A stretch of DNA of 64,000 nt from an uncultured Candidatus Berkelbacteria bacterium. GTDB taxonomy: Bacteria; Patescibacteriota; UBA1384; UBA12157. Each line of letters starts with the position of its first letter. Within the stretch, counting starts at the first letter, position 1. This document shows, piece by piece, positions 11,624 through 64,000 of this stretch. A program made the translations under genes and the position numbers. The notes beneath the pieces were generated by a model. It had not been told where the DNA came from. It saw nothing but the letters and a program-made list of their open reading frames with translations, and did not search any database. Location: assembly GCA_903877885.1 (NCBI GenBank), contig CAIRFN010000006.1, positions 156,332 through 220,331 of the forward strand, read 5' to 3'.

Positions 11624-11945
11624 TGGTGGAGCTGACGAGAATTGCACTCGTGTCCAAAAAGATTTTGACACAATTCTTTAAAAACAAGTTTAAATTTGTC
11701 TTCGTTTTTTCTTCTATCGACTAAGACAACCTAGATAGATATAGACCAAATTGTGACGCCCGTTCTCTCCGGTTGGTCATCAAAGAGACAGACGCTGCTG
11801 TAAAGCTTAAGCTATTAGGCTAGAGCTAAGGCAGGTGTAAACGTATTTTTTGCGTTTAACATTTTGCCATTTGATTTAACGAGTCAAAATGACGTGCTCG
11901 ACTTGAAATTGTGGGTTGATCTTCCTGTCGAATCTAAACAGCCCC
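11624..11945 (-). ncRNA. ssrA: tmRNA (SsrA), one-piece; predicted tag AKNTFTPALALA
   Basis: The minus-strand 5' end GGGGCUGUUUAGAUUCGACAGG matches the tmRNA acceptor strand plus the UUCGAC motif. The 3' end GGACACGAG-UGCAAUU-CUCGU-CAGCUCC-A-CCA parallels the E. coli 3' end, including the G3:U70 pair. The internal frame GCA AAA AAU ACG UUU ACA CCU GCC UUA GCU CUA GCC UAA UAG sits at plus 11812-11853. Confidence 0.85.
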
Positions 11946-25150: not shown

Positions 25151-26503
25151 CTATTTTATTTTTCCAAACCATTTTGGCTTGGTCCCGTGGAAGCCTTTGA
25201 TAAAATCGGTAAAGCTCATGATCTGTTTTCCTTCGGGTTGAACCACATCTAAAACAAGTTTGTTATCGTCCATATGAGTTTGATGGATAATCAATCTTTT
25301 ATCATCAATAAAGGTGTAAGATCCTGGCCAAGGAAAATAGGCGCGAATTTGCGCGTCGATTTTGGCAGTTGGTTTTGTCCAATCAATTTCGCCGTCTTCT
25401 TTTTTAAATTTTTTTGTTCGGCTAGCTAAATTTTCATCTTGATCCATTGGATGAAGTTTATTATGGATTAGTCGAGGCAGTGAATGATAAAGCAATTTAA
25501 CGGCGGCGACAGCCAAGCGTTTTTCCAAACTTAAGCTATTATCATCTTCATCAATATCAATTTTGATTTGTGAAAGGACTGGCCCTTTATCAATTTCTGG
25601 CACCATTTTAATAAGTGACACGCCAGTTTCAACATCATTATTTAATATTGCAGTTTGAATTGGGGTGGCACCGCGGTATTTTGGTAAAAGTGATGGATGC
25701 AAATTAAGGGCGCCGAACTTGGCGACAGTTAAAATGTCATTTTTTAGAATTTGGCCGAAGTCGCTTAAAATAATTATATCTGGATCTTGAGCTTTAATTT
25801 TTTCTAAATCCAAATTAATGTTTTCGGTTTCTAGAATTGGTAAATCAAACCTAATCGCTTCTTCGTGTACGTTCGTGAACTTAGTTGCTTTATCTCGTCC
25901 GGCTGGTTTGGCTTTTTCAGTTACAACCAGCGGGATGTTTAAACCCAAAGAAATTAAGCCGCGCAAAATAATCGCTGCAAATTCGCCGGAGCCAACGAAA
26001 ACAATTTTCTTTGATTTTAAATCTGGAAAATCGCTTAAATATTTTTCTCGAACTCGGTCAGTAAACATAATACCGTTTAAATGATCGATTTCGTGTTGCA
26101 AAATGCGGGCTAAAAAACCTTTGGGCGCAATCTTTTTAGTTCGACCCATCTCATCTTGATATTTAACTTTAAGTTTTTTGCTTCGCTCGGTTTCCAATTC
26201 AATTGGTGGAATTGAAAGACAACCTTCATCAGCCAAATCAGTTTCATTGGAATATTCAATAATTTCCGGATTGACAAAACAAGTCAAAGGAATAATTCCC
26301 CGATCTTCATAAGGACATTCGACAATTAAAACTCGATTATCAATGCCAAGTTGATTGGCAGCTAAACCAACGCCGCCTTCGCCCCGTAAAGCTTTGGTCA
26401 TAGCTTTAATTTGATCAATTAAAGATTCGTTAAAATCGACCACTTTTTGAGTTGTCTTTTTTAAGATTTTATTTGGAACTGTGACTATTTTTAAGTTTTT
26501 CAA
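25151..26503 (-). CDS. Fused peptide deformylase / methionyl-tRNA formyltransferase (Def-Fmt)
   Basis: The N-terminal half has PDF motifs GVGLAANQLG, EGCLSIP and QHEIDHLNG. The C-terminal half is Fmt (KIVFVGSGEFA ... NLHPSLLPKYRGATPIQTAILN). A single 450-aa ORF. Confidence 0.85.
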   Translation of the reverse strand: MKNLKIVTVPNKILKKTTQKVVDFNESLIDQIKAMTKALRGEGGVGLAANQLGIDNRVLIVECPYEDRGIIPLTCFVNPEIIEYSNETDLADEGCLSIPPIELETERSKKLKVKYQDEMGRTKKIAPKGFLARILQHEIDHLNGIMFTDRVREKYLSDFPDLKSKKIVFVGSGEFAAIILRGLISLGLNIPLVVTEKAKPAGRDKATKFTNVHEEAIRFDLPILETENINLDLEKIKAQDPDIIILSDFGQILKNDILTVAKFGALNLHPSLLPKYRGATPIQTAILNNDVETGVSLIKMVPEIDKGPVLSQIKIDIDEDDNSLSLEKRLAVAAVKLLYHSLPRLIHNKLHPMDQDENLASRTKKFKKEDGEIDWTKPTAKIDAQIRAYFPWPGSYTFIDDKRLIIHQTHMDDNKLVLDVVQPEGKQIMSFTDFIKGFHGTKPKWFGKIK

Positions 26504-42321: not shown

Positions 42322-42657
42322 TACGAAAAAAGCCTTAAGTAATCGATAAGCCAGGTTCTGTTTAGGCAGCATCTATCTTCGCGTCGGACCCAGTGGACAT
42401 CTGTCGAGCAGACATTGATGATAATGGGCCATCCGACTTGCACCGAGCTAGGCTTGCCACAGACATACATTACTGTATGAACGCGTGAGCTCTTACCTCA
42501 CGATTTCAACCTTACCTCCGCGGTTAGCGGATCGGCGGTATATTTTCTGTTGCGCTGTTCTCGAACCTCACGGCCCGCTCATTTTCACGAGCGCTGTACT
42601 CTTTGGTGCCTGGACTTTCCTCACTCTTGCGAGCGGAACTGCCTCGATTACTTAAGG
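42322..42657 (-). ncRNA. rnpB: RNase P RNA
   Basis: The minus-strand reading contains GAGGAAAGUCCAGGCACC (the conserved GGAAAGUCCGGGCUCC region) and ACAGAACCUGGCUUAUCG (the conserved 3' region). A 13-bp P1 helix CCUUAAGUAAUCG/CGAUUACUUAAGG is followed by a U-run. Confidence 0.8.
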
Positions 42658-49482: not shown

Positions 49483-51084
49483 ATGAAGAAAATTTGGCTT
49501 TGGATCTCAATTATTGTCTTAATTTTAGCGCTTGGTGGTGAACTATCGTATCTTTATTGGCCACAGATTAAGGTATTTAGTCAAAAATATTTGCCAAAAT
49601 CGGCTCAAACTGTTCAACCGATTATTCAAATTGCCGCTAGTCCTTCGGCCAGCCCGACAGTCAAATCGGTTGTAGTTTCCGACGCCGGTGTGACCTGGAT
49701 TGAACCCAAAAAACTCGATGATTTGAAATTAACAGCTGCTCAAACGACAAACGACGCCATCAATAATACTAATATCTATTACAAAATCGCCGATCTAACT
49801 GGCGGCGGCGAGTTAGATTTGGATGTTTATCAACCAGATTGTCCGTGTCAGCCGGAACTACTTCGATTTAAAAAAGATTCGGCTGGTAAATACACCTATT
49901 TAGTTAAAAACTCGGCCGAGCAGGATTATTCGACTTTTAGCCAAGTTATCAAACCTGAAGTAGTCGCCGACTATCAAACTATTTATCAATCAATTACGGC
50001 GCCAGACTTTTTAACCGTAAATGGCGCAACCTTAAAAGCCGGTGGTAATACTGGATTATTTTCCGATATCAGTAAAGACGCTCAAGAAATTACCACGACT
50101 GATTATGGTAAAATCTATCGAACCGGCATAAATTATTCCTTAAAGTTGGCCGATTCAACTTATGCCATCTATGTTAATAAATTTTCATTTCAAACCGATA
50201 ATGAAATTTCCCTTGTAACCTGGCTAGACGGCACAGCTAATACTGCGCGTTACACGGCCGAAGGTTATGTTGCTTGCGGTCGAACCGCTTCGAATAATAT
50301 TGTTAGCGACACGACTGATATTTCCAGTCGTTTAACTCAAATCGGTAAAACTAATGCCGGTGATCCGGTTTATACGGTGGTGGCTACCGACGCTTTAATG
50401 AAAGCGGCTTATGATAATTACAAGGTCGGTCGTGATAAGGATATTTTGACAATTGACCAATTTGCGGCCAAAAAACCAATTTTCATCTGGAAGAATGCTC
50501 TTGGCGATTATATTGTTTTTACCGGTCGTGATTTTGCAGGACTTGCCGAATGCGGTAAACCAGTAATTTATTTGTATCCAACCGAGGAAACTCAAGTCAA
50601 TGTTAAGCTTGGGGCGACTATTACCAAATCTGAACCCGTTTATAATAATGGTTGGCAAGTGATGGCTAAACCTAATGGCGAATTAACTTTTGGCGATAAA
50701 ATATATCAATCGCTTTATTGGGAAGGCACTGGTCAAGATTATCCGATTGTCAATCAAGGTTTTGTCGTAGCCAAGGCAGATTTAGAAAGAACATTGAAAG
50801 AGCAAGTAGCTAAATTAGGCTTGAATGATAAGGAATCCGCTGATTTTATGGCTTTCTGGTTACCAAAAATGCCTAAAACTGCTTATACTCGTTTAACTTG
50901 GTTTGGCACAAAAGACATAAATCGATTGGCGCCGCTAACAATTACCCCAAAACCAGATACAGTTATTCGCATTTTCTTGGATTTTCAAGGTTTAAATCAA
51001 AAAATCGATCTTAAACCACAAGTTTTGAGCGCGATCCCGCGTCAAGGTTTCACCGTTATCGAGTGGGGCGGTTTACTTAAGTAA
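49483..51084 (+). CDS. Hypothetical secreted/anchored protein
   Basis: 533-aa ORF with an N-terminal hydrophobic segment and no known domain; 17 nt after the Memo-like gene. Confidence 0.45.
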   Translation: MKKIWLWISIIVLILALGGELSYLYWPQIKVFSQKYLPKSAQTVQPIIQIAASPSASPTVKSVVVSDAGVTWIEPKKLDDLKLTAAQTTNDAINNTNIYYKIADLTGGGELDLDVYQPDCPCQPELLRFKKDSAGKYTYLVKNSAEQDYSTFSQVIKPEVVADYQTIYQSITAPDFLTVNGATLKAGGNTGLFSDISKDAQEITTTDYGKIYRTGINYSLKLADSTYAIYVNKFSFQTDNEISLVTWLDGTANTARYTAEGYVACGRTASNNIVSDTTDISSRLTQIGKTNAGDPVYTVVATDALMKAAYDNYKVGRDKDILTIDQFAAKKPIFIWKNALGDYIVFTGRDFAGLAECGKPVIYLYPTEETQVNVKLGATITKSEPVYNNGWQVMAKPNGELTFGDKIYQSLYWEGTGQDYPIVNQGFVVAKADLERTLKEQVAKLGLNDKESADFMAFWLPKMPKTAYTRLTWFGTKDINRLAPLTITPKPDTVIRIFLDFQGLNQKIDLKPQVLSAIPRQGFTVIEWGGLLK

Positions 51085-57933: not shown

Positions 57934-60900
57934 ATGCCAGCACAACAAGAATATACCGCTAAAAATATTACTGTTTTAGAGGGACTCGAACCGGTTCGAA
58001 AACGACCGGGCATGTATATTGGGGGAACCGGACTCGAAGGTTTACACCATTTGATTTGGGAAATTGTGGATAACTCGTTCGATGAGGCAATGGCCGGATA
58101 CGCCAAACAAATCGATGTTGAGCTCTTGCCAGATAATAAAGTTCGCGTGATCGATGATGGTCGTGGCATTCCAGTGGATAAACATCCAACGACCGGAAAA
58201 TCCGCTTTGGAAACTGTCTACACTGTGCTTCACGCTGGTGGTAAATTTGGTGAAGGTGGTGGTTATAAAGTTTCCGGTGGTCTTCATGGTGTCGGCGCTT
58301 CGGTTGTAAACGCGCTTTCAACTCATTTGCGCGCTGAAGTTTATCGTGATGGTCATATTTATGCTCAAGAATATGCCAGAGGAAAAGTTTTGGGAGATGT
58401 CAAAATCGTGGGTGAAACTGATAAAGATAAACATGGTACAGCCATTACTTTTCAACCTGATCCGGAAATTTTTCCTAATACCACTTTTTCACTAGATACG
58501 ATTTTAAATCATTTGCGTCAGCAAGCTTATTTAACCAAAAAAATTCATTTGCGCGTGGTTGATCATCGGGAAAATCCTGATGAGCCAGGTTATAATTTTT
58601 ATTTTGAAGGCGGCGTGGCCAGTTTTGTTCGTCATATCAATAAAAATCGTGTGGCACTCAATGAACCACCGTTTTATTTTGAAAAAGAAGTGGCTGACAA
58701 TACGGTTGAAGTTTCGATTGCTTATACCGATGATTACAATGAACACGTTTACACCTTTGCGAACAATATTTATACAGTTGAAGGTGGAACCCATTTGACT
58801 GGTTTTCGCACCGCTTTGACTCGCGCCATCAATGATTACGTTAAAAAATCGGAAATGAATAAAGGTGGAGATTTAACTTTTTCTGGTGAAGATGTGCGTG
58901 AAGGTTTAACGGCTGTGGTTTCGGTAAAATTACCAAATCCGCAATTTGAAGGTCAGACCAAAGGAAAGCTCGGCAACCCGGAAATGAAAAATATGGTTGA
59001 GCAGGTGACTTATGAAGGTCTGTCTTATTATTTTGAAGAACATCCACAAGATGCCCGAAAGATTATTGAAAAATGCGCTTTGTCGATGCGTGCTCGGGTG
59101 GCTGCCCGCGCCGCGCGCGATACCGTGATTCGAAAAGGCGCTCTGGAGGGTATGACTTTGCCAGGTAAGCTAGCAGATTGTTCCAATAAAGATTCCGCTA
59201 ACTCCGAACTTTACATTGTCGAGGGTGATTCCGCCGGCGGATGTTGGGATGGAAATACTAAAATTGCCTTAGCCGATGGTCGCAATCTTTCATTTATTGA
59301 TTTAGTCAAAGAAGATAAACAAGGTAAACAGAATTTTTGCTACACGATGCAGAAAAATGGTCATATTGGTGTTGCTCCAATTTTGAGTCCAAGAATAACC
59401 AAACGAAATACCGAAGTTATCAAGGTTACTTTGGACAATAATGAAGAACTTATTTGTACCCCAGACCATTTGTTTATGTTAAGAGATGGATCATATTTAC
59501 AGGCAAAAGATTTAGACAGCAGTATGAGCTTAATGCCTTTAAGGAAAAAAACATCTCAATTGGGTGGACGAATTACGATTTCTGGTTATGAAATGGTCTT
59601 AAATCCTCAAAACCATAAATGGGTTTTTACACATTTACTAGCCGATAATTATAATCTTGAAAATAACGTTTATTTATCTGAAGATGGTAGTCATAAACAT
59701 CATCAGGATTTTAATAAATTAAATAATAATCCCGATAATATTATCCGTATGACTCCAACTGACCATCTTGATTTGCATCGATCACATGCTAATAAAACTT
59801 TGCATACTCCAGAAACTATTGCTAAATGCAATGCAATTAAAAAGACGGAAGCTTATCGAGAAAAAATCAGCGCCACGATTAAAAATAATTATGGCCAAAT
59901 GTTAAGCGAAAAAGCTAAAAAACAATGGAGCGATCCAGAATATAAAGAGTTTATGCTTCAAAAATATATGGCTTTTTTCAACCAAAATAAAGAATTTCGA
60001 ATACGAATTCTAAACACTATAAACGAAGCTCAAAAACAATATTGGGCTAAGCCGGAAAACCGAGCTAAACAAGCTGAAAAAGTTAAAGAATATTTTACAA
60101 CTCACCCGGAATTAAAAGCGATTTTAGCCGAGAAAGCCAAAACAGAATGGCAAGACGCGGAGTTATTGAATTGGCGTCGAGAAAAAACTAAAGAACAGTG
60201 GAATCAAGATTTTCGAGCTAAACGAAAAGTTGCCTATAACCAAGTTTATTTAAATACCGGTTTAAGTTTTGCTAAAAAAGTTCTGGAAAAAAACGGTCAA
60301 GTCGACTTATATAACCAAGAAAGATCGTCGCTACCAAAAAGAAATCCAAATCTTGTCAAAATGGAAACGCTGATTTCACGATTCTTTAATGGCAAAAAAG
60401 AAGAATTTGTTGAGGCAGTGGCCAATTTCAATCATAAAATTAAATCAATTGAAAAAATCAATCAAAAAATTGATGTCTATGATATCGAAGTTCCAAACAC
60501 GCATAACTTCGCCTTAGCCAGTGGTATTTTTGTACACAATAGTGCCAAACAGGGTCGGGACAGAAAATTCCAGGCAATATTGCCACTTCGCGGTAAGATT
60601 TTAAACGTCGAACGCGCCCGTATGGATAAAATGCTATCTAACGAGGAAATTAAGAATTTGATTATTGCGATGGGTACCAGCATTGGCGATACTCTGAATA
60701 TGGATAAAATGCGTTATGGTCGCGTCATCATTATGACTGATGCTGATGTTGACGGCGCCCATATTCGAACCTTATTATTAACTCTTTTCTATCGGCATTT
60801 TCAAGAAATCATTACCGGTGGACATTTGTTTATTGCCCAACCGCCGTTATTCTTGGTCCAAAAAGGTAAGACCAAACAATGGGCTTACAATGAAGGTCAG

Positions 60901-61152
60901 ATGGAACAAGCGGTTAAAAAGATGGGTAAAGATGGGGTTAATGTTCAGCGTTACAAAGGTTTGGGAGAAATGAACCCGGAGCAATTGTGGGACACCACGA
61001 TGAATCCGGAAAATCGAGTTTTACTTAAGGTTTCGGCTCATGATGCCGAGCGCGCTGATGAAATTTTTTCCATGTTGATGGGCGACGAAGTAGCTCCCAG
61101 AAAACGATTTATCCAAACTCATGCTAAAAATGTTAAAAACCTAGATGTATAG
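57934..61152 (+). CDS. gyrB: DNA gyrase subunit B, interrupted by an in-frame intein
   Basis: GHKL ATPase, TOPRIM and C-terminal GyrB motifs. The host sequence EGDSAGG | SAKQGRDR is split by a 433-aa insert; the extein totals 639 aa. Confidence 0.95.
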   Translation: MPAQQEYTAKNITVLEGLEPVRKRPGMYIGGTGLEGLHHLIWEIVDNSFDEAMAGYAKQIDVELLPDNKVRVIDDGRGIPVDKHPTTGKSALETVYTVLHAGGKFGEGGGYKVSGGLHGVGASVVNALSTHLRAEVYRDGHIYAQEYARGKVLGDVKIVGETDKDKHGTAITFQPDPEIFPNTTFSLDTILNHLRQQAYLTKKIHLRVVDHRENPDEPGYNFYFEGGVASFVRHINKNRVALNEPPFYFEKEVADNTVEVSIAYTDDYNEHVYTFANNIYTVEGGTHLTGFRTALTRAINDYVKKSEMNKGGDLTFSGEDVREGLTAVVSVKLPNPQFEGQTKGKLGNPEMKNMVEQVTYEGLSYYFEEHPQDARKIIEKCALSMRARVAARAARDTVIRKGALEGMTLPGKLADCSNKDSANSELYIVEGDSAGGCWDGNTKIALADGRNLSFIDLVKEDKQGKQNFCYTMQKNGHIGVAPILSPRITKRNTEVIKVTLDNNEELICTPDHLFMLRDGSYLQAKDLDSSMSLMPLRKKTSQLGGRITISGYEMVLNPQNHKWVFTHLLADNYNLENNVYLSEDGSHKHHQDFNKLNNNPDNIIRMTPTDHLDLHRSHANKTLHTPETIAKCNAIKKTEAYREKISATIKNNYGQMLSEKAKKQWSDPEYKEFMLQKYMAFFNQNKEFRIRILNTINEAQKQYWAKPENRAKQAEKVKEYFTTHPELKAILAEKAKTEWQDAELLNWRREKTKEQWNQDFRAKRKVAYNQVYLNTGLSFAKKVLEKNGQVDLYNQERSSLPKRNPNLVKMETLISRFFNGKKEEFVEAVANFNHKIKSIEKINQKIDVYDIEVPNTHNFALASGIFVHNSAKQGRDRKFQAILPLRGKILNVERARMDKMLSNEEIKNLIIAMGTSIGDTLNMDKMRYGRVIIMTDADVDGAHIRTLLLTLFYRHFQEIITGGHLFIAQPPLFLVQKGKTKQWAYNEGQMEQAVKKMGKDGVNVQRYKGLGEMNPEQLWDTTMNPENRVLLKVSAHDAERADEIFSMLMGDEVAPRKRFIQTHAKNVKNLDV
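59242..60540 (+). mobile_element. GyrB intein (Ssp GyrB-type) with an HNH-family homing endonuclease region
   Basis: Begins with Cys (CWDGNTKIALADGRNLSFIDL) and ends ...NTHNFALASGIFVHN followed by Ser. The internal SHKHHQDF..NPDNIIRMTPTDHLDLHRSH is HNH-like, followed by KA..EW helical repeats. It resembles the Synechocystis GyrB intein blocks (VIKVTLDN..ICTPDH..MLRDGSY). Confidence 0.85.
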
Positions 61153-61160
61153 AGGATAAT

Positions 61161-61370
61161 ATGCCTAATATTGAACCAGAACCAAATCAATTTAAAAATA
61201 GTGACAATCAAATCGAAGAACCGAATGTAATTTTGGAAACTCAAAAAGAACATAAAGATTGGTATAATGTCAATCAAATGGGCCGCCAAGGCAATCGTCC
61301 AGTCAATGTCCCTCGCGAAATCAAAAAAGAAAAAGGCACCCATAAACGCAGTTCAAGTAAGGGAAGATAA
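61161..61370 (+). CDS. Hypothetical small basic protein between gyrB and gyrA
   Basis: 69-aa ORF starting 8 nt after gyrB; low-complexity and K/R-rich. Confidence 0.25.
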   Translation: MPNIEPEPNQFKNSDNQIEEPNVILETQKEHKDWYNVNQMGRQGNRPVNVPREIKKEKGTHKRSSSKGR

Positions 61371-61390: not shown

Positions 61391-64000
61391 ATGGCAGACA
61401 AAGACGAACAAGACAAAAAAGATAAAAAAGAAGAAGCTGATGAATCTGAAGAAATAGCAGAAACCGATGATTCAGAAGAATCGGCTGATATTGATGAAAT
61501 CGAAAATCCGGAAACAGAACTTAATCCAGAAGAATTAGCCAAAGAGGAAGCGATTTTTAACTTTGGCAAGGATTCGGGTGAAGAGGAAAAAACTGATTAC
61601 GGTATGATCAAAATGAGAGACTTGGAACTTGAAATGCAGGAGTCTTATTTGGATTATGCCATGTCGGTAATCGTGGCTCGGGCTTTGCCTGATGTTCGCG
61701 ATGGTCTTAAACCGGTTCATCGCCGCGTACTTTTTTCGATGCATGAGTTAGGTCTAACCGCCAAAGCCAAATATCGAAAATCCGCCCTTGTGGTTGGAGA
61801 CGTTTTGGGTAAATATCATCCTCATGGCGATATCGCTGTTTACGATACATTGGTTCGTATGGCTCAAAGCTTTTCGATGCGTTACCAGTTGGTTGATGGC
61901 CAGGGAAACTTTGGCTCAATCGATGGCGACTCGGCGGCCGCCATGCGTTACACTGAATGTCGCATGTCCAGTTTTTCCGAAGAAATGTTGGCTGATATTG
62001 AAAAAGATACGGTCGATTTTGTGCCAAACTATGATTCGACTCGTGAAGAGCCGCGCGTACTACCGAGCAAATTGCCAAACTTACTACTCAACGGTTCAAT
62101 GGGCATTGCTGTTGGTATGGCAACCAATATCCCGCCTCATAACCTGGGCGAATTAGTCGATGGTGTGACGCACTTAATCGATAATCCCGATTGTACCATG
62201 GAAGATTTGATGCAATTTGTTAAAGGTCCGGATTTCCCGACCGGCGCTGAAATTTACGGGCTTAGCCAAATCAAGAATGCCTACGCTACCGGTCGCGGTT
62301 CAATTGTGATGCGCGCCGTCAGTTCTATTGAAGAATTAAAGCGTGGCGGTTTTAGAATTGTGATTTCCGCTCTACCTTATCAGGTTAACAAAGCTGATCT
62401 TATTTCTAAAATTGCCGATTTAGTTAAAGATAAAAAATTGGAAGGTATTTCCGGGTTGCGTGATGAATCCGATCGGACTGAAGGTATTCGCATCGTAATT
62501 GATCTTAAAGCCACTGCCTATCCGAAAAAAATCTTAAATCGATTATATGAATTGACTTTAATGCAGACATCCTTCCATGTGAATATGTTGGCCTTAATTG
62601 ATGGAATTCAACCACGTATTTTAACTTTAAAAACTGTTTTAGAAGAATATTTAAAGCATCGTCAAATTGTGGTTCGTCGTCGAACCGAGTTTGAACTTAA
62701 GAAAGCCAAAGACCGCGCTCATATTTTGGAAGGTTTGCGCATTGCTTTGGCTCGAATCGATGAAGTCGTGGAAGTAATCAAAAAGAGTAAAACCAGAGAA
62801 GAGGCGAAAGCTTCGCTTTGTGCAAAATTCGAACTGACTGAAATTCAAGCCAACGCTATTTTGGAAATGCGCTTATCGGCCTTGGCTGCTTTGGAAGTCC
62901 AAAAAATTGAAGAAGAATATCAAGCTTTAATTACTTTAATCAAAGAATTAGAAGAAATTTTAGCTTCGGAACCCAAGATTTTAGGTATTATTAAAAAAGA
63001 ATTACTAGATATTAAAAAGCGTTTTCCTGATCCGCGTCGGACCCAGATTTTTGAACAAGAAATTGGCAAATTCCGGGCTGAAGATTTAATTCCTTCAGAA
63101 CAAGTAATTGTCATGCTAACCAAAGGTAATTACGTTAAACGAATGCCGGTTTCGGCTTATCGCTCGCAAGTTCGTGGCGGTAAAGGTGTTTTGGGTATGG
63201 AAACTAAAGAAGAAGATGTAATTGAACACATGTTGGCTGCCAATACTCACGATGATTTACTCTTTTTTACTGACCGTGGTCGGATTTTTCAGACTAAAGT
63301 TTATGATTTACCATCAGCTTCCAGAATTTCCAAAGGTCAAGCGGTGGTTAATATTTTACAGATTTCGCCAGATGAAAAAGTCACAGCCGTGATTGCGCTT
63401 GATAGTGAAGATAAAGAAAAATTGAAATATTTTGTGATGGTAACTGAACGCGGCGTGATGAAAAAGAGTGAAATCGCTTTATACAAAAACGTTCGCAAAA
63501 CTGGGATTGTGGCGATTAAATTAAGCGCCAACGATAAATTGCGTTGGGTCAAAACCACTTCTGGCGCGGATAAGATTTTCATTGCCTCGGCTCAAGGACA
63601 ATCGATTTTGTTTGATGAAAAAGACGCTCGACCAATGGGGCGTTCCGCCGCTGGTGTTCGAGGAATTCATTTACGCGGCGAAGATAAAGTGATCGGTGTG
63701 GATGTGGTTTTGCCAAGTCTTGAAGAAAAAGCTTTTGTTTTGGCGGTTTTGGAAAACGGTTTTGGTAAACGCACGCCTTTACCACAGTTTAAGATTCAAC
63801 TTCGCGGTGGTATGGGAATTCGCGTAGCAGCGGTGGCCGCTCGAACCGGCAAAGTCGTGGCTACCCACGTGGTTTATGGTGATGTTGCTGATGTTATTTT
63901 AGCCAGTAAACAAGGCCAAATTATCCGGATGGATTTGGCGACAATTAAGATTTTGGGTCGCGACACTCAAGGTGTGACTTTGATGAAAATGCATGATAAT
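61391..64000 (+). CDS. gyrA: DNA gyrase subunit A (3' end beyond the window) with a ~50-aa acidic N-terminal extension
   Basis: AAGGAAGGAAG Shine-Dalgarno; [32 protein letters not shown], the active-site region [11 protein letters not shown], and GyrA-box-type C-terminal repeats. No stop codon before position 64000. Confidence 0.9.

Follow-up and report, generated by a model that had tools for sequence, protein, structure and literature searches.

A divergent HNH-type intein in the gyrase B gene of a Berkelbacteria-like Patescibacterium

Inteins of DNA gyrase subunit B (GyrB) that carry an HNH-type nuclease belong to a family that is already described and widespread, and the copy analyzed here is an ordinary new, divergent member of it. 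The intein presented in a 1997 paper on an HNH-family endonuclease is reportedly that of Synechocystis GyrB. As cited in PMC3359363, the title of that paper speaks of an intein with an endonuclease of the HNH family. The Ssp GyrB intein, the type member of the family, splices in E. coli, and mini- and split versions of it have been engineered (PMC3620165). In the His-Me finger classification of Jablonska et al. (2017), an HNH_3-related group named “Gyrase subunit B intein / dCTP deaminase intein” was distinguished, with 84 bacterial and 7 archaeal sequences listed under “Gyrase subunit B intein” (PMC5714182). A further point of reference is I-HmuI, an extended monomer in which the helices that follow the HNH core contact DNA (PMC3384342).

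Here, we describe a GyrB intein encoded within a window of 64,000 nucleotides (the whole stretch of DNA that was analyzed). It is, with high confidence, a canonical class 1, splicing-type intein of the GyrB HNH family, and it interrupts the active-site motif of the gyrase B Toprim domain. The feature is genuine and no artefact; its architecture, insertion site and inferred mechanism are those of described GyrB inteins, from which it differs in host lineage and in its divergence (at most 54% identity).

Position of the insert within gyrB

The gyrB open reading frame (57934..61152, forward strand, stop included; TIGR01059 and Pfam) encodes a 1072-aa precursor of extein and intein and runs without frameshifts or stops. 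Translation of this frame reproduced exactly the coordinates and lengths given in the first-pass annotation, namely a 433-aa insert at 59242..60540 (forward strand) in a 1072-aa GyrB. The insert reaches from Cys1 to Asn433, corresponds to GyrB aa 437-869 and lies in frame between Gly436 and Ser870; its identification as an intein was based on Pfam Intein_splicing, TIGR01445, TIGR01443 and homologues. The N-extein (GyrB aa 1-436; 57934..59241, forward strand) ends in ELYIVEGDSAGG, where the Toprim domain begins, and the C-extein (GyrB aa 870-1072 and stop; 60541..61152, forward strand) begins at the +1 nucleophile Ser of SAKQGRDR. In the translation, ELYIVEGDSAGG is followed by CWDGNTKIALADGR at the start of the intein, and NFALASGIFVHN at the end of the intein is followed by SAKQGRDRKFQA; the insert opens with CWDGNT and closes with GIFVHN ahead of SAKQGRDR.

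The Cys at the start of the insert, the VHN/S at its end (a slash marks a splice junction throughout) and the splitting of Toprim had all been noted earlier and were borne out by the sequence and by Pfam. The Pfam Toprim match opens at residue 870, directly past the insert and at profile position 13 of 96, from which it follows that the insert interrupts Toprim behind its first strand. When the insert is removed, a 639-aa GyrB results in which the Toprim motif EGDSAGG/SAKQGRDR is made whole. The expectation that this extein would align with GyrB from end to end also held, as the gyrB equivalog model TIGR01059 was covered over positions 1-639 of 639 by aa 7-1072 of the protein with 893.3 bits (cut-off 882.4), the insert being handled as a single large gap in the alignment. 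Besides Toprim, Pfam recognized HATPase_c, DNA_gyraseB and DNA_gyraseB_C, which lie to either side of the insert. Directly downstream of gyrB lies gyrA (61391..64000, forward strand; open frame, translation and the gene call on a public contig), which continues past the window end and contains no intein in the portion within the window (61391..64000). The identical 1072-aa protein was found on 13 public metagenome contigs (e.g., ENA ERZ18625396 scaffold_36). Precomputed Pfam matches for these public copies include Intein_splicing.

The Hint domain and predicted splicing

Two Hint lobes (aa 1-129 and 399-433) enclose an I-HmuI-like HNH nuclease, Trp-containing helical repeats and a small helical module. 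The N-terminal lobe (59242..59628, forward strand) contains block A, C1WDGNTKIALADGR, and block B, C72-T73-P-D-H76. The C-terminal lobe (60436..60540, forward strand), recognized by TIGR01443, by invariant residues and by inteins of the PDB, contains block F, DVYDIEVPNTHNFALASG, and block G, IFVHN. The insert scored 68.1 bits with Pfam Intein_splicing (cut-off 35.8), and the profiles for the two intein termini matched at the expected ends, with 38.2 bits for the N-terminal region (TIGR01445, cut-off 24.5; intein aa 1-79) and 33.2 bits for the C-terminal region (TIGR01443, cut-off 15.6; intein aa 411-433), which is far more than chance would give. A sequence search of the PDB aligned NrdJ-1, Npu DnaE and Pho RadA to intein aa 33-95 and 395-433; the matches of this search were confined to such Hint segments, with none to the central domain. 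The NCBIfam model of an RtcB-related intein (NF052663) matched aa 1-241 with 129.8 bits against a whole-protein cut-off of 1050 and was set aside as a related intein from another host protein.

Conservation was assessed in an alignment of the insert with 36-38 homologous inteins. Hint blocks A, B, F and G, which the first-pass annotation had named as the features an intein should possess, were all present and invariant or nearly so in this alignment of 37-39 sequences. Cys1 of block A was invariant (37 sequences), as were T73 and H76 of the block B TxxH motif. In block F (D411/D414...H421-N-F), V412, D414 and N422-F-A-L425 were invariant and H421 nearly so. G428 and F430-V-H-N433 of block G were invariant as well, with Ser as the +1 residue, so that the end of the intein reads DVYDIEVPNTHNFALASGIFVHN/S. 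Of 94 columns with conservation of 90% or more in 38 homologues, this intein keeps 90, every splicing and HNH residue included. The start of the intein reads CWDGNT versus CFSGDT in the family consensus. The Hint fold of a class 1 intein was recognized in the insert.

We infer that the GyrB intein splices autocatalytically, because its catalytic residues are intact and its host gene is essential. Following translation of the 1072-aa precursor, Cys1 would undergo an N-S acyl shift and the +1 Ser of SAKQGRDR would attack the resulting thioester (transesterification), whereupon cyclization of Asn433 would free the intein and an O-N shift would produce a functional 639-aa GyrB. Since gyrase is essential and its Toprim motif is broken by the insert, efficient splicing is presumably necessary for the organism.

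The same observations bear on whether the insertion might not splice at all, either as a Hint-like or BIL-type domain kept in the mature protein or as part of a gyrB pseudogene. We consider this extremely improbable, given that all class 1 splicing residues are present and invariant in the family, and that the insert occupies the catalytic motif of Toprim in a gene whose score exceeds the cut-off of the gyrB equivalog. An unspliced insert would be expected to disrupt the Toprim fold, and the intact reading frame, the directly adjacent gyrA and the recovery of the exact protein from 13 public contigs likewise speak against a decayed or retained insertion.

Splicing could also have been co-opted as a conditional switch, with redox- or stress-dependent splicing setting the supply of gyrase, in which case the intein would not be purely selfish. 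That an essential enzyme carries the intein in its active site is compatible with such a role, as are two extra Cys residues near Cys1 in sequence, C33 (at least 90% conserved) and C72 (invariant). Nothing in the data requires a switch, however, and conserved Cys residues are common in Hint cores, and the sporadic distribution of the intein together with its retained nuclease domain suits a selfish element, which makes this explanation very unlikely.

The HNH nuclease and its helical region

The HNH-like motif proposed in the first-pass annotation was recovered as SHKHHQDFNKLNNNPDNIIRMTPTDHLDLHR at intein aa 151-180, within a nuclease core of the HNH (beta-beta-alpha-metal) type that spans intein aa 148-182 (59683..59787, forward strand) and reads DGSHKHHQDFNKLNNNPDNIIRMTPTDHLDLHRSH. 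PHROG 7545 “HNH endonuclease” matched intein aa 111-194 (E 1.1e-9), and two more PHROG HNH families matched more weakly. Conservation in the GyrB intein family is 90% or higher at H153, H154, D156, N161, N162, N166, H175 and H179. In the predicted structure, two strands (aa 151-154 and 167-170) and a helix (aa 172-185) make up a beta-beta-alpha element here; the core is of the beta-beta-alpha-metal kind, in which one His is catalytic, an Asn has a structural or metal-binding role and a further His lies distally. Fold comparison showed that the intein nuclease resembles I-HmuI. Pfam HNH_3 (PF13392) stayed below its gathering score on the intein (12.3 bits versus 24.8, E 0.14); since this match alone would be insufficient, the HNH call rests on the PHROGs and the fold comparison. 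One homologue (P0095) carries a precomputed PF13392 annotation. No Pfam match to LAGLIDADG was obtained in the intein, even at E≤1.

The nuclease core is followed by an alpha-helical region (intein aa 186-351; 59797..60294, forward strand) with Trp-containing repeats of about 37 aa, presumed to form the DNA-binding arm of the endonuclease, and, ahead of the Hint C-terminal lobe, by three short helices (intein aa 354-394; 60301..60423, forward strand) that may be a helix-turn-helix-like module. In the structure model, helices extend over intein aa 190-351 with pLDDT values of 71-96. The repeats, spaced about 37 aa apart, start near aa 220 (MLSEKAKKQWSDPEYKEF), aa 258 (NTINEAQKQYWAKPENRA) and aa 294 (ILAEKAKTEWQDAELLNW), and a shorter copy, EKTKEQWNQDFRAKRKVA, lies near aa 314. 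The “KA/EW” repeats described earlier are present, as EKAKKQW, EAQKQYW, EKAKTEW and EKTKEQW, and they stood out from shuffled sequence: the best internal pair of 18 aa (aa 220 versus 294) scored 45, above the maximum of 39 reached in 200 shuffles (mean 24.9, sd 4.0). Conservation in the intein alignment reaches at least 90% for W229, W303, W311 and W320. PHROG 19446 “homing endonuclease” (E 4.4e-4) and PHROG 22215 (E 2.5e-3) overlap the helical region, and neither NUMOD (NUMOD1/3/4) nor any other Pfam DNA-binding family was found there, even at E≤1. The helices that follow the HNH core may bind DNA. A match to Pfam DUF7948 (E 0.09-0.3) was dismissed as compositional noise of the Lys/Glu-rich helices.

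Whether the nuclease of the Berkelbacteria-like GyrB intein has kept its activity is a closer call than its identity, and we lean toward a nuclease that is still active. Its length of 433 aa is full, within the mode of 429-435 aa that holds for 32 of the 39 inteins (that of the window counted); none of the conserved HNH residues is altered, 90 of the 94 conserved columns are kept, and the gyrB frame is free of frameshifts and stops. At four otherwise highly conserved positions of the presumed DNA-binding helical domain, this intein departs from the family (F246 in place of Y, N321 and V335 in place of T, and S363 in place of R), which could reflect a changed target or the onset of decay. Under the latter explanation, a splicing-competent intein with an inactive HNH endonuclease would be fixed in its lineage late in the homing cycle and would persist solely for the reason that imprecise loss destroys an essential gene. 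Besides the four substitutions, two observations are in favor of this: no close intein has been sampled, the best match being 54% identical, and shorter family members of 313-412 aa suggest that erosion of the endonuclease happens. Set against the full length, the unbroken frame and the intact HNH residues, an inactive nuclease appears less likely than an active one.

Occurrence among GyrB genes and comparison with known systems

The nearest gyrB genes, taken as 80 loci from GTDB species representatives, belong to Candidatus Berkelbacteria and other Patescibacteria, with 88% aa identity for the closest (L001) and 65-73% for the next four (L002-L005). The intein is absent from all 80 loci, in each of which a single tblastn HSP spans the junction. 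The pattern EG[DN]SAGG/[ST]AK is uninterrupted in 79 of them, with EGDSAGG/SAKQGRDR as its most frequent form. Two checks proposed with the first-pass annotation were thereby answered: the junction EGDSAGG/SAKQGRDR, restored on removal of the insert, occurs unbroken in 79-80 of these 80 loci, and intein-free alleles are present in the closest relatives. By its sequence, the host is a CPR bacterium of Berkelbacteria-like type, and every close relative that has been sampled is free of the intein, an absence that could stem from loss and not from gain.

A search with the intein alone returned 1216 proteins at E≤1e-3, and the best 120 all carried GyrB Pfam domains or names. More than 100 public GyrB proteins contain homologous inteins, many of them named “intein-containing DNA gyrase subunit B” at NCBI. 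Matches reached E 6e-156 with 100% query cover and 44-54% identity in a nearly gap-free alignment, the best intein match being 54% identical. In all 38 homologues in which both junctions could be seen, the insertion site is identical (EG[DEN]SAGG/C...HN/SAK). Among the matches listed, hosts within the Patescibacteria include Berkelbacteria, Pacebacteria, Kaiserbacteria, Nealsonbacteria and others. Cyanobacterial hosts among the same matches are Planktothrix, Waterburya, Pseudanabaena and Aetokthonos; other bacterial hosts are Chloroflexota, Omnitrophica and Campylobacterales; and archaeal hosts, according to the labels of metagenome-assembled genomes, are Nanoarchaeota, Woesearchaeota, Methanosarcinales, Thermoplasmatota and Halobacteriales. 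That one intein lineage occupies one position in distant bacteria and in gyrase-bearing archaea can be explained by the high conservation of its target site, and patchy presence at such a site is the pattern expected of a homing (mobile) element. The splicing blocks, the junction and the intein-free alleles together support the earlier interpretation as a self-splicing mobile intein in gyrB, with splicing itself predicted from the residues described above.

Once freed, the intein may act as a homing endonuclease that would recognize intein-less gyrB around GGCGGA/AGTGCC and introduce a nick or cut at, or close to, GAGGGTGATTCCGCCGGCGGA/AGTGCCAAACAGGGT; recombinational repair with an intein-bearing copy as template would then spread the element to the cleaved allele. 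The hosts of the closest inteins have far more distant GyrBs, with C-extein identities of 42-67%. When intein identity was compared with C-extein identity across the 38 homologues, the two rose and fell roughly together and gave no clear transfer signal. The GC content of the intein (33.0%) is lower than that of the exteins (43.0% and 42.0%), and its GC3 of 0.256 is lower than in any of the window's 26 other ORFs with 250 aa or more (mean 0.329, sd 0.035, minimum 0.280). Most of the GC deficit is found at codon positions 1 and 2 and mirrors a composition rich in Lys, Asn and Glu. Low GC is taken as a weak hint of foreign origin and was rejected as proof of recent transfer, because positions 1 and 2 account for most of it and GC3 is only about 2 sd low.

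When 1.84 billion cluster representatives were scanned with the central domain (intein aa 100-395) by a profile-free method, 637 relatives were retrieved. Some of them occur in other host proteins or in compound arrangements, namely in a GyrB with a second, LAGLIDADG-type intein (P0129), in GyrA (P0188) and in two T4-like portal proteins with four Hint stretches (P0161 and P0173).

In practical terms, “intein-containing DNA gyrase subunit B” is the appropriate annotation of this gyrB, and standard pipelines would annotate the feature correctly; since gyrB is a common marker, the mature 639-aa form is preferable for phylogeny. The locus also adds a divergent intein (at most 54% identity) to a family whose type member, Ssp GyrB, is widely used in protein engineering as a split intein. 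None of the Hint-containing structures matched is described as combining Hint and an HNH nuclease in one solved structure, and the literature searched yielded no cleavage assay of any HNH-type intein; the confident model of an I-HmuI-like nuclease with helical repeats offers a start for structural and cleavage work on inteins of this type.

Overall, the intein agrees with Ssp GyrB and other cyanobacterial GyrB inteins in host protein, insertion site (EGDSAGG/.../SAK), length (about 430-435 aa) and the combination of Hint with an HNH-type center. Identity to the cyanobacterial GyrB inteins (Planktothrix, Waterburya, Pseudanabaena and Aetokthonos) is 45-53% over 69-100% of the query, which bears indirectly on the similarity to the Synechocystis GyrB intein proposed in the first-pass annotation. 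A provisional comparison with a Ssp GyrB mini-intein sequence, taken as a lead, gave 57% identity in the N-terminal lobe and 70% in the C-terminal lobe. In contrast to Ssp GyrB, the host here is a Berkelbacteria-like Patescibacterium and not a cyanobacterium. An HNH_3-related nuclease within GyrB inteins and a spread over bacteria and archaea are shared with the “Gyrase subunit B intein” group of PMC5714182, membership in which is assigned here by homology to GyrB inteins and not by the clustering of its authors; relative to the size of that group, current databases are far larger (1216 whole-intein matches and 637 central-domain cluster representatives). The nuclease and the helices behind it correspond to the type of architecture of I-HmuI (PDB 1u3e), an HNH homing endonuclease encoded by a phage intron, whereas in PI-SceI, PI-PfuI, PI-PkoII and TliVMA the nuclease is a LAGLIDADG domain, unlike the HNH nuclease of this GyrB intein.

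Base composition of the intein and its exteins

Third-position GC content (GC3) of the 433-aa HNH-type intein (59242..60540, +) was 0.256; the window's 26 other ORFs that reach 250 aa or more all had higher values, from 0.280 to 0.465. Overall GC content was 33% for the intein versus 42–43% for the exteins (57934..59241 and 60541..61152, +).

The gyrA side of the locus and other genes of the window

Between gyrB and gyrA lies a 69-aa ORF (61161..61370, +), for which the public contig has a gene call and no Pfam match is on record. Directly 3' of gyrB, the start region of gyrA (61391..~61600, +) encodes an acidic and Lys-rich low-complexity extension of ~70 aa that precedes the conserved GyrA start, and no intein was seen among the 870 aa of GyrA visible in the window.

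Elsewhere, a single 449-aa ORF (25151..26503, -) matched Pfam Pep_deformylase (aa 3–152) followed by Formyl_trans_N and Formyl_trans_C (aa 164–413); it is an apparent fusion of def and fmt within a single reading frame. For a 533-aa ORF (49483..51084, +), no family was found in a Pfam search at E ≤ 1e-5. RNAs scoring above the Rfam gathering thresholds comprised a tmRNA (11624..11945, -), a bacterial class A RNase P RNA (42331..42655, -) and five tRNAs; the 64-kb window has no rRNA.

Relatives with several Hint or splicing regions

Among proteins related to the central domain of the intein, the GyrB proteins P0129 (1608 aa) and P0130 (1453 aa) have two Hint regions apiece. P0129 carries an HNH-type intein at the same site as the window GyrB, and its second intein, of the LAGLIDADG type, is positioned further into the Toprim region. 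Two T4-like portal proteins, P0161 (2296 aa) and P0173 (2383 aa), contain four Intein_splicing stretches and appear to be products of phage portal genes with several inteins; the HNH_3 domain of both is related to the nuclease of the window intein.
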